Virus record (IMG/VR): IMGVR_UViG_3300035182_001152
Origin: a virus
Taxonomy: Duplodnaviria > Caudoviricetes
Strand: one strand, 5' to 3'
DNA: 64,000 bases
Made by a program: the position numbers and the translations under genes. Positions 23,596 to 27,818 of the stretch are shown piece after piece. The notes beneath the pieces were generated by a model, which saw nothing but the letters and a program-made list of their open reading frames with translations, had not been told where the DNA came from and did not search any database. The first letter of the stretch is position 1. Each line of letters opens with the position of its first letter.

Positions 23596-24126
23596 ATGAC
23601 CCTCGATGAGTTACTACAAGAAAAACACACACCAAGTGGAACATACGCAGCCGTAAAGTTCAGCCAGGACACAAAGGATGCGATCGAAAAGTACATCAAA
23701 GACAATGACATCCCTAACGGGTTAGCAGCGTCAAAGATGCACTGCACTTTACTGTACAGCCGCAAGCATTGCCCTGATTACGAGCCATTAGGTAAGATCG
23801 ATCCACCGTGGATCGGCAAGCCGACTGGCTTGGATGTGTGGGAATCAAAAGGCGAACAGGACGGAGAAGAGGGAACACGTTGCCTCGTAATGGAGTTCAA
23901 GTGTGACAAGCTGAACGAACGCCATGAACAACTGATGGATGAACATCAAGCGACGTATGACTTCCCTGAATACAAAACACACGTCACACTGTCATATGAC
24001 ATTGGTGATTTAGACGAAGCAGAACTACCAGATATCAAGAGCGTTGTCAAGAAGCTGGAAATCGTTGAAGAATATGGCGAGGATCTTGATTTGAGCTGGG
24101 CCAAAAACGAGGGAACGGAAAAATGA
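23596..24126 (+). CDS. acb1: Acb1/T4 gp57B-like 2H phosphodiesterase (anti-CBASS nuclease)
   Basis: GTYAAVKFS N-terminus and two HxT motifs (MHCTLLYSR; YKTHVTLSYD) with DF.EY preceding, as in T4 57B. Confidence 0.85.
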   Translation: MTLDELLQEKHTPSGTYAAVKFSQDTKDAIEKYIKDNDIPNGLAASKMHCTLLYSRKHCPDYEPLGKIDPPWIGKPTGLDVWESKGEQDGEEGTRCLVMEFKCDKLNERHEQLMDEHQATYDFPEYKTHVTLSYDIGDLDEAELPDIKSVVKKLEIVEEYGEDLDLSWAKNEGTEK

Positions 24127-24410: not shown

Positions 24411-24694
24411 TCACCGCCAAGCAAGTTGAAAGCCACAGCTGGTGCAAGTTCGCCAAGCTGCGGACGTTCGCGTTGTCGGGCGAAAATGGTCAACATCCGT
24501 TCTCGATCACGATTGATGCTCGTGACGTTGATGCGACACTTGAAATGGCGCTTACCCGATTCTGTGACGAACCCCACAATCCAATCATGCGTCAAGACGG
24601 CGGTAAGTACGTGATCGATCGTTGGGAGCCGGAAGCCCGCGCCCCCAAGGATGAGATCAAGCAAGCTCTGTTGCAAGCGCTACGCGTGGAATAA
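24407..24694 (+). CDS. Hypothetical protein
   Basis: Coupled ORF. Confidence 0.6.
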   Translation: MITAKQVESHSWCKFAKLRTFALSGENGQHPFSITIDARDVDATLEMALTRFCDEPHNPIMRQDGGKYVIDRWEPEARAPKDEIKQALLQALRVE

Positions 24695-25527
24695 TGCATT
24701 GGATACTGCAAGTAAACATCTCCAATGAAGACGGCTGGAAGTCATTGGTTGAAACACTCGACCGATTCGATATTCCGTATTCTATCCACAAGGTCGTTCC
24801 GTTTGTTGGTGAGATCGAACCTGACATTAACCCGGAAGGCCCGGTGATCTGTTTTGGTACATATTCACTCCGCCACCTTGCTAAGAAGAAGGGGTGGTAT
24901 CCGGGTGTATTTGACCTTGAGCCGTTCGACTTTAGTGTCCAGCTTGATCACTGGGGGCAGCATATGTTCAACGCTGACTCAGTGATCACCAGATTTGACG
25001 ACGCTGTGTTTACGAATGAGCAAATGTTTGTTCGTCCAGCAAACGATACGAAGTATTTTGCAGGTAAGGTCTACGACCGTGATGAGTTCGAGGAATGGCA
25101 GCGGAATGTCTGCACACTGAATCTCGACTACGGCAACAGCCTGAAGAATGACACCTTGATCCAAGTTAGCCCCGTCAAGAAGACGCTGAATGAACACCGG
25201 TTCTGGATCGTCAAAGGCAAGATTGTTACGGCGTCAACGTACAAGATCGGCCGGACTGTCCATTACCAGGCTCCCGTAGACGAACGGTTCCATCAGTACG
25301 TTGAGGAGCGGGTTGCTGAATGGCAGCCTCTTGATGCATTTGTTATTGACGTCTGTGATACTCAAGACGGTGGGATCAAGATCATGGAGATCAATACTAT
25401 CAATGCATCAGGCTTCTACGCTGGTGATATGCAGAAACTCGTGTTTGCACTAGAGGAGGCGTTCAACGTCCCTACGGAGCCAGATCTGCTTGACCATAAA
25501 ATAAGGAGCTGTGATGACACAATGTAG
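24694..25527 (+). CDS. ATP-grasp domain protein (DUF4343/R2K-like)
   Basis: FVRPANDTKYFAG, EHRFWIVKGKIVTAS.Y, FVIDV, IMEINTINASGFY. Confidence 0.85.
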   Translation: MHWILQVNISNEDGWKSLVETLDRFDIPYSIHKVVPFVGEIEPDINPEGPVICFGTYSLRHLAKKKGWYPGVFDLEPFDFSVQLDHWGQHMFNADSVITRFDDAVFTNEQMFVRPANDTKYFAGKVYDRDEFEEWQRNVCTLNLDYGNSLKNDTLIQVSPVKKTLNEHRFWIVKGKIVTASTYKIGRTVHYQAPVDERFHQYVEERVAEWQPLDAFVIDVCDTQDGGIKIMEINTINASGFYAGDMQKLVFALEEAFNVPTEPDLLDHKIRSCDDTM

Positions 25528-26071: not shown

Positions 26072-26479
26072 TTATTGAGCAAAGAAGGTGGCTTCAAAGG
26101 CCTCTTTGAGCTCAATCTGTTCTGGTGTGTACTTACCATTGCGGGGCGTTACTACCTTGTATTGCTCAAGGATCAGTAACGCCCTGCGTCGTTTTTCAGG
26201 CTCACGAAGGTATGGAGAAATTTGCTCCAGCACATTGATGGCAGACCCACGATAGGTTTGCCAATGCCAAGCTTGTTTGTGTCCTTGACTCTTGGCGCGC
26301 TTAAGTTTGATAATTTGTCCACCAAAGGTTGACTTCATGAAGTCAACCAGGGTGTAAGTCGTGCTGGACAACGATACTCCTGGCGCTCGAAATTGATTGG
26401 CAGCATTCATCTTCGTTAAGGTAACAGTGCCCTCTCCGTCAAACAAACCCGCCGCGTAAATGATATGGTCTAGGGTCAT
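26072..26479 (-). CDS. Single-motif LAGLIDADG homing endonuclease
   Basis: YAAGLFDGEG motif; FGG.I, W.W, L..I.PYL..K. Confidence 0.88.
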   Translation of the reverse strand: MTLDHIIYAAGLFDGEGTVTLTKMNAANQFRAPGVSLSSTTYTLVDFMKSTFGGQIIKLKRAKSQGHKQAWHWQTYRGSAINVLEQISPYLREPEKRRRALLILEQYKVVTPRNGKYTPEQIELKEAFEATFFAQ

Positions 26480-26569
26480 GCGTTGATTTCCTTCTGAACG
26501 GGGGGTACTATGAACCCGTCTGCAGTTATTTAGCAATCTTCACCGAAAGCCAGATAAATACGGACAATG

Positions 26570-26890
26570 ATAGTAAACTGTTTCATGGGAACGACGGGAA
26601 CACGGCGGTTCGATTCCGCCCAGGTCCACCAGAAATCATCAGTCGACGATCGTAGTTGACTCACTTTGTCGCGGGCTCCGGGGCATTGAGTTAGTAACAA
26701 GCTACGTAGGCGGGTGATTCCTAATGGGCCTGACCAGGCTTCGACTCACGGACAAGTATAATGTGACGGCTATCCGAAGTTATGGACGTAATCCATTGCC
26801 AAAACGTAAATGCAAACGTAAACATGCAATTCGCGCTCGCCCTCTAATCCAGGGTTCGCGACGGGGTAGGTAACCTTGTAACAAAGTCCC
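26570..26890 (+). ncRNA. ssrA: Circularly permuted (two-piece) tmRNA
   Basis: The T-arm GGCGG-TTCGATT-CCGCC and acceptor 3' strand CAGGTCC-A-CCA (26604-26631) come before the 5' strand GGGCCTG (26726-26732). The stem has 7 bp with a G3.U70 pair, followed by ACCAGGCTTCGAC. The tag ORF GCA..TAA (26812-26847) encodes ANVNMQFALAL*. Outer ends are approximate. Confidence 0.92.
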
Positions 26891-26923
26891 AAGAAACCAG
26901 CTTCGGCTGGTTTCTTCGTTTTT
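26891..26923 (+). terminator. Intrinsic terminator of the tmRNA gene
   Basis: AAGAAACCAGC-TTCG-GCTGGTTTCTT followed by CGTTTTT. Confidence 0.88.
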
Positions 26924-27005: not shown

Positions 27006-27818
27006 ATGACTTACAAATATGTTTACAGCAAACCTGGAAGTAACCATGACGAGGATGAAGACGAGATTGAAGTTAAGTTCCCATTCGCCGACGTGGGAAA
27101 GAAACCATTCCGAGTGTTTGAGCAAACATTCACTGCCCAGCATGTTCACTTCTATCTGAGCAAGCCAGTTGGTGAGGCTGAAGGTTACACAGACATGATC
27201 CACAGGATCACCCTTGCCAATCCATCCGATACCATTTTCATTCACTTGAACATTCCAGGTGGTCAGATCGATACCGGTGTCCAACTGATTAACGCAATGC
27301 GTAACTCCCAGGCGCGAATCGTTACCGTTCTTGAAGCCACTGCCTACTCCCTGGGCACGCTAATCTTCCTGGCTGGTGACGAAATGGTCGTCAACGACAA
27401 CTGCATGATGATGTTCCACAACTTCAACGGTGGTCTCATCGGTAAGGGCAACGAACTGGTATCCGAGCTCGAAGCAACCGTTAAATGGTTCCAAGCGCTT
27501 GCTGAGGATGTCTACATCCCGTTCCTATCACGTGAAGAGTTCGATCGCATCACCCGTGGTGAAGATATGTGGATGCAAACCCCTGAAATTCGCACTCGCC
27601 TCGAGTGCATGGTTAAAGTGATGAAGGAAAAGCAGGAAGCAGAGGAGAAGGCTGAGCAAGAAGCCGAAATCGAAGCGGTGGCCGCTCTGCTCGCACCAGC
27701 AGTTGAGAAGAAGGTCAAAAAGTCACCACCCGCAAAGAAGACTGTCCCCGCAAAGAGGACGGGTCCAGTGAAGAAAACGCGCGCAAAACGTCAACCCAAG
27801 ACTTCTTCAGAAGAATGA
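27006..27818 (+). CDS. clpP: ClpP-like serine protease with an acidic/Lys-rich tail
   Basis: HLNIPGG...G..LINAM, AYSLGTLIFLAG (Ser nucleophile), MMFHN (His), ED.WM; AAGGAG RBS. Confidence 0.85.
   Translation: MTYKYVYSKPGSNHDEDEDEIEVKFPFADVGKKPFRVFEQTFTAQHVHFYLSKPVGEAEGYTDMIHRITLANPSDTIFIHLNIPGGQIDTGVQLINAMRNSQARIVTVLEATAYSLGTLIFLAGDEMVVNDNCMMMFHNFNGGLIGKGNELVSELEATVKWFQALAEDVYIPFLSREEFDRITRGEDMWMQTPEIRTRLECMVKVMKEKQEAEEKAEQEAEIEAVAALLAPAVEKKVKKSPPAKKTVPAKRTGPVKKTRAKRQPKTSSEE

Follow-up and report, generated by a model that had tools for sequence, protein, structure and literature searches.

The 64-kb stretch of viral DNA analysed here (the window) contains a circularly permuted tmRNA gene that lies between a homing-endonuclease-like gene and a gene for a ClpP-like serine peptidase. 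The features of the locus are the following:

26072..26479, minus strand: homing-endonuclease-like gene, 135 aa (phrog_5046, 2e-23), divergent, starting 74 nt from the tmRNA promoter
26553..26560, plus strand: promoter motif GATAAATA, ATAAATA class, ending 8 nt before the first helix strand
26567-26923, plus strand: circularly permuted tmRNA gene (Rfam and sequence reading)
26567..26631, plus strand: predicted acceptor piece (Rfam alignments, sequence, parsed stems), its 5' end at 26567 placed from the position of the promoter
26569-73, plus strand: 5' strand of helix 2, GAUAG (Rfam alignments)
26604-08 and 26616-20, plus strand: T stem GGCGG and CCGCC with T loop UUCGAUU between them (sequence)
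26621-27, plus strand: 3' acceptor strand CAGGUCC (sequence)
26628-31, plus strand: encoded ACCA (sequence)
26632..26725, plus strand: intervening segment (spacer) of 94 nt, expected to be excised (MFE fold of the precursor)
26726..26811, plus strand: start of the coding piece (Rfam alignments, parsed stems)
26726-32, plus strand: 5' acceptor strand GGGCCUG, in which G3 pairs with U70
within 26726..26811, plus strand: D-loop-like ACCAGGCUUCGAC, after the 5' acceptor strand
26770-74, plus strand: 3' strand of helix 2, CUAUC (Rfam alignments)
26782-96, plus strand: pseudoknot-1 hairpin AUGGA-CGUAA-UCCAU (Rfam alignments)
26812..26847, plus strand: tag reading frame (Rfam alignment and ARAGORN -ps80, same frame)
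26848..26923, plus strand: 3' domain (pseudoknot region) and intrinsic terminator (RF01850 alignment, terminator scan)
27006..27818, plus strand: ClpP-like serine peptidase, 270 aa (Pfam CLP_protease, PF00574, 6e-12; phrog_1827, 4e-53)

Both the anatomy of the gene and its family are direct observations of the present analysis. When the whole window was compared with Rfam, RF04321 (tmRNA_permuted) was the sole family above threshold, matching positions 26569-26847 of the plus strand over model positions 1-213 with 72.9 bits (E 4e-12; gathering score 47 bits). The betaproteobacterial model RF01850 (beta_tmRNA) aligns over its full length (26518-26918, model positions 1-331) and spans the leader, the tRNA-like domain, the resume region, the 3' pseudoknot and the terminal hairpin, but its 73.7 bits stay below the cut-off of 84 bits. 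ARAGORN did not call the tmRNA gene with either default or -ps settings; at -ps80 it gave the right tag and resume site and misplaced the tRNA domains. An earlier note on this DNA had proposed ARAGORN and the Rfam permuted-tmRNA models as a check, and the outcome is divided: RF04321 supports the gene, whereas RF01850 falls short and ARAGORN by default is silent. The locus is therefore a practical case of a real tmRNA that is overlooked by both the default ARAGORN search and the lineage model.

The sequence confirms the permuted order described in the earlier note: the 5' acceptor strand (26726-26732) comes only after the T arm, the 3' acceptor strand and the CCA (26604-26631). All seven positions of the acceptor stem GGGCCUG/CAGGUCC are paired according to the parsed stems, with G.U as the third pair. 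This G3.U70 pair, which had also been recognized before, is the alanine identity element. The tag starts at the alanine resume codon GCA, which follows the consensus context UAAAU, and comprises 11 codons and UAA (GCA AAC GUA AAC AUG CAA UUC GCG CUC GCC CUC UAA). Its translation, ANVNMQFALAL*, agrees with the earlier reading and is obtained in the same frame from the Rfam alignment and from ARAGORN at -ps80. The terminator scan found an 11-bp stem at 26891-26916 with the loop UUCG and a T run behind it. The MFE fold of the precursor (z = -2.6 against shuffles) contains the T arm and the terminator as well as the acceptor stem, which closes over the spacer; the spacer itself makes a long hairpin that stacks on this stem. 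The 94-nt spacer holds no credible ORF; spacer length ranges from 13 to 106 nt across relatives. Four DNA runs from mat and sediment metagenomes, three of which may be the source sample, contain the gene letter for letter. Since the gene is identical in the contigs of four runs, the Ala-Leu end of the tag is no assembly slip.

The motif GATAAATA is a normal representative of the T4-late-like promoters of this phage. The window contains 17 copies of ATAAATA where 3.0 are expected, a count reached by none of 100 shuffles, and the copies mostly lie just upstream of a same-strand gene, often 20-45 nt from the start codon (sites include 10324, 23466, 26554, 38739 and 42782, and on the minus strand 36257, 56377 and 59391). 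The ATAAATA sites of the window have no conserved -35 element and the base before the motif varies. They thus resemble T4-type late promoters, a TATAAATA-like -10 element without a -35 that is enriched upstream of genes. This enrichment points to a T4-late-type transcription system in the phage, and by analogy to T4 the tmRNA promoter would be active late. Relatives carry GTATAAATAC at the same place, in several cases with a GTTGAC -35 element 17 nt upstream. The idea that the window's GATAAATA is a decayed form of the relatives' TATAAATA with GTTGAC was rejected because the first base varies and a -35 is lacking throughout the window's own set of motifs. The earlier note had assigned the gene its own promoter motif (26553) and terminator; the enriched ATAAATA class upholds the former and the 11-bp stem with its T run the latter.

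The tmRNA belongs to the phage, a giant phage from microbial mats, and is no host gene; its locus is fixed. The window encodes a T4-type topoisomerase II, a family B polymerase, a ribonucleotide reductase, an NAD-ligase and Acb1 (PHROG/Pfam), and phage genes flank the tmRNA on both sides, which together with the RF04321 score bears out the earlier description of a phage-encoded, circularly permuted tmRNA. No close relative among deposited phages was found by blastn with the locus or with the 8 kb that follow it. A search with the ClpP-like protein returned 6 loci in viral and 43 in metagenomic sequences, of which 4 and 29, respectively (33 in total), have a permuted tmRNA upstream on the same strand. 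The gene order ligase, Acb1, tmRNA, ClpP-like, primase, SprT-like and topoisomerase II is kept in about 40 large-phage contigs. Among the relatives, one genome of 350 kb is complete and bears terminal repeats; it contains a single such tmRNA and encodes neither SmpB nor ClpX. The lineage consists of T4-like giant phages of freshwater, sediment and mat habitats, in which the tmRNA is a conserved gene. When IMG/VR was scanned with a pattern, 37 additional viral contigs showed the same permuted arrangement of the acceptor strands.

Several other genes mark the surroundings of the tmRNA. Just upstream, and conserved in relatives, are an Acb1 anti-CBASS phosphodiesterase (Pfam 1e-33; 23596-24126) and an R2K-clade ATP-grasp protein (24694-25527). 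In the homing-endonuclease-like gene a LAGLIDADG-like GLFDGEG motif is visible, and LAGLIDADG Pfam matches are sub-threshold (E 0.016). A homologue occupies the same spot in contig L048 (2666-3064, minus strand) and is absent from the near-identical sister L046, which suggests a mobile gene that targets the neighbourhood of the tmRNA. On the other side, the gap between the tmRNA and the ClpP-like gene measures only 120-200 nt in the window and in many other contigs. In L044 (2546-3442) and L041 (3183-3938), and also in L039, L042, L052 and L101, an inserted ORF of about 1 kb separates the terminator of the tmRNA from the ClpP-like gene; the ORFs of L044 and L041 have no PHROG match and no significant Pfam family. 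In a pattern scan of genome contigs, the window's acceptor stem together with a short spacer occurred only in seven Cupriavidus contigs (L088-L094) with a permuted tmRNA-like layout, from which no host call is made. These Cupriavidus copies may be extras on islands or prophages.

The conservation of the gene and the covariation of its stems are likewise observed directly. Acceptor stems across relatives read GGGCCUG, GGGGAUG, GGGGGCG, GGGCUCG, GGGGCCG and GGGCCCG, and each parsed copy, in sets of 10 and 19, has all seven acceptor positions paired and keeps G3.U70. The pseudoknot-1 stem, read by eye, also covaries (CCGA/UCGG, CUGA/UCAG and UGA/UCA in relatives). At least eight synonymous codon pairs encode the terminal Ala-Ala of the relatives' tags, and therefore the tag is translated and under selection in the lineage. 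Some members of the lineage deviate in other respects. CCA is not encoded after the acceptor stem in L041 and L050 (ACUA) or in L042 and L102 (ACAA), so that in these contigs the acceptor piece would have to be trimmed at its 3' end and given a CCA. In the distant syntenic members L062, L070, L071, L075 and L078 the alphaproteobacterial model scores above the beta model, and the phage RNAs thus map uncleanly onto any one bacterial permuted lineage.

A decaying or reduced tmRNA, in which selection on the degradation signal has been lost, the copy is drifting and ribosome rescue is poor or absent, would account for several peculiarities of the window. Its tag is the sole one without an alanine end while the relatives keep Ala-Ala by synonymous codons, and the acidic third residue of the tag has been lost. 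In addition, its RF04321 score was the lowest among full-length copies before the contig L099 was found, and it stays below the RF01850 cut-off that more distant relatives reach (85-173 bits). Several pairs of helix 2 and of the 3' pseudoknot are flagged as non-standard in the Rfam alignments, and in two-piece MFE cofolding only the 7-bp acceptor stem joins the pieces, although the closest relatives do little better. L099, the closest relative found (a 136-kb contig whose ClpP-like protein is 84% identical), changes this picture. It scores equally low (RF04321 72.1 bits, RF01850 60.7 bits), so that low scores are a trait of the sub-lineage. Between L099 and the window, the acceptor stem (GGGGGCG/CGCCUCC against GGGCCUG/CAGGUCC) and the T stem (GGGGG/CCCCC against GGCGG/CCGCC) differ by compensatory changes, whereas pseudoknot-1, the resume region and the tag block are nearly identical. 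Compensatory changes imply structural selection, which argues for a working RNA and against a pseudogene. The tRNA-like domain, the encoded CCA, the promoter motif, the tag frame and the terminator are all intact in the window. Decay of helix 2 found no support either, as its pairing energy of -16.2 kcal/mol is inside the family range (-9 to -24.5 kcal/mol in relatives); shuffle z-scores for this helix do not discriminate. Overall, we regard a decaying tmRNA as unlikely.

The tag end is what sets the window apart. The tags of syntenic relatives end in Ala in 33 of 33 cases and in Ala-Ala in 32 of them. The same holds for the terminal Ala of all 22 other unique tags of the pattern set and of 5 further close relatives. 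Among about 60 phage permuted-tmRNA tags sampled, the window has the only non-Ala terminus, so that the earlier designation of the tag as non-canonical, i.e. not ending in Ala-Ala, is well founded. Its end is hydrophobic, as is usual for tmRNA tags, but reads -Ala-Leu in place of the typical Ala-Ala. Near the window the ends are graded: -LAA in L044 and L101, -LVA in L102 and L103, -LMA in L099 and -LAL in the window itself. The tag of L099, ANENMQFALMA*, shares the core AN(E/V)NMQFAL with the window and has an acidic third residue, which the window lacks. Tags ending in LAL were not found in the three small supplementary files of the tmRNA-database paper. In the IMG/VR contigs L005, L012, L015, L019, L025 and L026, the tags are 28-35 residues long and share ...KVSMGRGFRF..., and some end in -VLA.

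The consequences of such an end can be estimated from E. coli, where the carboxylate of the terminal Ala-Ala is the main ClpX determinant, and mutating either terminal Ala of the ssrA tag raises the KM of ClpXP with little effect on Vmax (PMC7652416). Engineered tag-end variants such as LVA, AAV, ASV and DAS alter turnover (PMC9382460). By this analogy it is reasonable to expect weaker ClpX capture of proteins tagged with an -AL end, although a rule from E. coli may not hold in the host of this phage. The earlier note had supposed that the tag end changes the fate of the tagged protein, and the KM data make the direction of that supposition reasonable. The -ALAL end may change this fate usefully, but the graded loosening of the tag end fits relaxed constraint at least equally well. 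The -AL end is carried by one genotype, from four runs that perhaps belong to one campaign; with a single genotype, selected fixation is indistinguishable from a change of recent date that is neutral or slightly deleterious.

The product of the neighbouring gene has the fold of ClpP (peptidase S14) together with a Ser-His-Asp triad: profile matches to ClpP in the PDB were obtained, Foldseek aligned the AF2 model with ClpP at TM 0.62-0.69, and Ser115, His138 and Asp187 are invariant in the alignment of relatives. About 40 acidic, disordered residues make up its N-terminus, and at the C-terminus a long helix leads into a Lys/Pro-rich tail; both features are absent from cellular ClpP. In the complete relative a T4 gp21-type prohead protease (Peptidase_S77) is encoded 60 kb away from the ClpP-like gene, so that the ClpP-like protein is an extra protease and no capsid protease.

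The tmRNA and this protein could form a tag-and-degrade unit of the phage, in which recoding of the tag to -AL or -MA evades the host ClpXP or reroutes tagged proteins to a phage-controlled protease. The permuted tmRNA lies upstream of the ClpP-like gene on the same strand in about 30 of about 36 loci with enough upstream sequence, and the unrelated phage contigs L009 and L016 have a distant ClpP-like gene 1.5 kb downstream of the tmRNA. The intact ClpP fold and triad and the separate capsid protease would fit a unit of this kind. A precedent for co-evolution of tag and protease is the Mycoplasma tag that is read by Lon (PMC9382460). However, the adjacency is unspecific; the entire block from the ligase to topoisomerase II is syntenic, and we rejected adjacency as proof of a module on this ground. 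The ClpP-like gene is kept without the tmRNA in L067, L068 and L081-L083, while no ClpP-like gene is nearby at 33 of the 37 other phage tmRNA loci. Moreover, tags are read by the unfoldase and not by ClpP, and it is this unfoldase, ClpX, that the complete relative does not encode. The ClpP-like gene also has its own promoter-like motif behind the tmRNA terminator. A joint tag-and-degrade function therefore appears distinctly improbable to us.

Another conceivable role is that of a decoy, whose tRNA-like domain titrates SmpB or AlaRS of the host and thereby blocks host trans-translation. A precedent is reported for the domain-only RNA of mycobacteriophage DS6A (cited in PMC4131195 and PMC11915505), and the tRNA-like domain is the best-conserved part of the RNA. 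Nevertheless, both the window and L099 carry a full message domain with the resume context, an open tag frame, pseudoknot elements and a terminator, and the peptide-level selection on the relatives' tags shows that the frame is translated in the lineage. We give a decoy function very little credence.

Taken together, we favour a genuine and probably active phage two-piece tmRNA (ssrA) of the betaproteobacterial type, in which ribosome release has been selected and the leucine end of the tag has drifted; judged from the sequence, we assign this reading a probability of about 0.65. How the RNA is processed and charged, how it tags proteins and what becomes of these we infer as follows. Transcription would start a few bases past GATAAATA and stop at the terminator at 26891-26916. 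In the precursor, the acceptor stem would close the 94-nt spacer hairpin. RNase P of the host could then cleave 5' of G26726, and 3' trimming would expose the encoded CCA at 26631. The predicted acceptor piece measures about 65 nt and the predicted coding piece about 195 nt, and the two would stay joined through the acceptor stem and helix 2. The host AlaRS would charge the RNA via G3.U70, and host SmpB and EF-Tu would carry it to stalled ribosomes, where translation would resume at GCA 26812 and append ANVNMQFALAL. Release of the ribosome is the function that we assume to be selected. The terminal Leu would be a derived state, the tag end of the sub-lineage having drifted from Ala-Ala, and proteins with the Leu-ended tag would most likely be poorer ClpX substrates without designed retargeting.

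A phage-borne RNA for ribosome rescue shows that turnover of host ribosomes is worth a gene during infection. The series of tag ends -AA, -VA, -MA and -AL on otherwise similar RNAs offers a test bed for separating the degradation signal from ribosome release. A leucine end in a drifting sub-lineage poses an experimentally easy question and is no surprise of principle.

Phage two-piece tmRNAs are already known, and the novelty that the earlier note attributed to the gene was overstated. Buchholz et al. 2022 described the two-piece ssrA of the Methylophilales phage Melnitz and found that 53 of 133 unique phage tmRNAs were two-piece forms, which came almost entirely from aquatic phages (PMC9004378), and a tmRNA database of 2025 lists 79 phage sequences. 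The gene of the window, itself part of a large phage lineage, thus adds to an established kind, and its unusual point is the Leu end of the tag. Like the window, Melnitz, pelagimyophages and cyanophages combine a permuted ssrA with a large lytic T4-like phage that has no SmpB of its own (PMC9004378). The ssrA of such phages also lies amid genes for replication and transcription, under a promoter of its own, and comes mostly from aquatic samples (PMC9004378). In contrast to the betaproteobacterial type of the window, these copies are alphaproteobacterial or cyanobacterial in type (PMC9004378). Melnitz is reported to have an early promoter and a glutamine riboswitch (PMC9004378), whereas the window has the T4-late-like ATAAATA and no Rfam riboswitch match. 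The Leu-ended tag distinguishes the window from the Melnitz-type phages.

The two-piece tmRNA of betaproteobacteria is the third permuted lineage (Sharkady & Williams 2004, as cited in PMC9004378). Its model RF01850 is the best lineage-specific model for the window, and relatives pass its cut-off. The window differs from this model in its spacer, 94 nt as opposed to about 40 nt in the RF01850 consensus, and in the location of the gene on a phage. Like the E. coli tag AANDENYALAA, whose recognition by ClpXP was treated by Flynn 2001 and Fei et al. 2020 (PMC7652416), the window tag is 11 residues long and has an aromatic seventh residue followed by Ala-Leu-Ala (positions 8-10). It differs in the last residue, which is Leu instead of Ala, and in that V-N-M-Q takes the place of the acidic residues of E. 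coli. The -LVA end of near relatives is also among the end variants engineered for the E. coli tag (PMC9382460). The ssrA tags of Mycoplasma and Mesoplasma (...NYAFA), which are read by Lon and not by ClpXP (Gur & Sauer 2008, as summarized in PMC9382460), are like the window's tag a natural C-terminal departure from LAA. According to the same summary in PMC9382460, the switch in these bacteria accompanies the loss of ClpXP and was tested experimentally, whereas for the window's tag a change of protease partner is hypothetical. The case of Mycoplasma and Mesoplasma illustrates that tag ends can shift together with the protease that reads them (PMC9382460).
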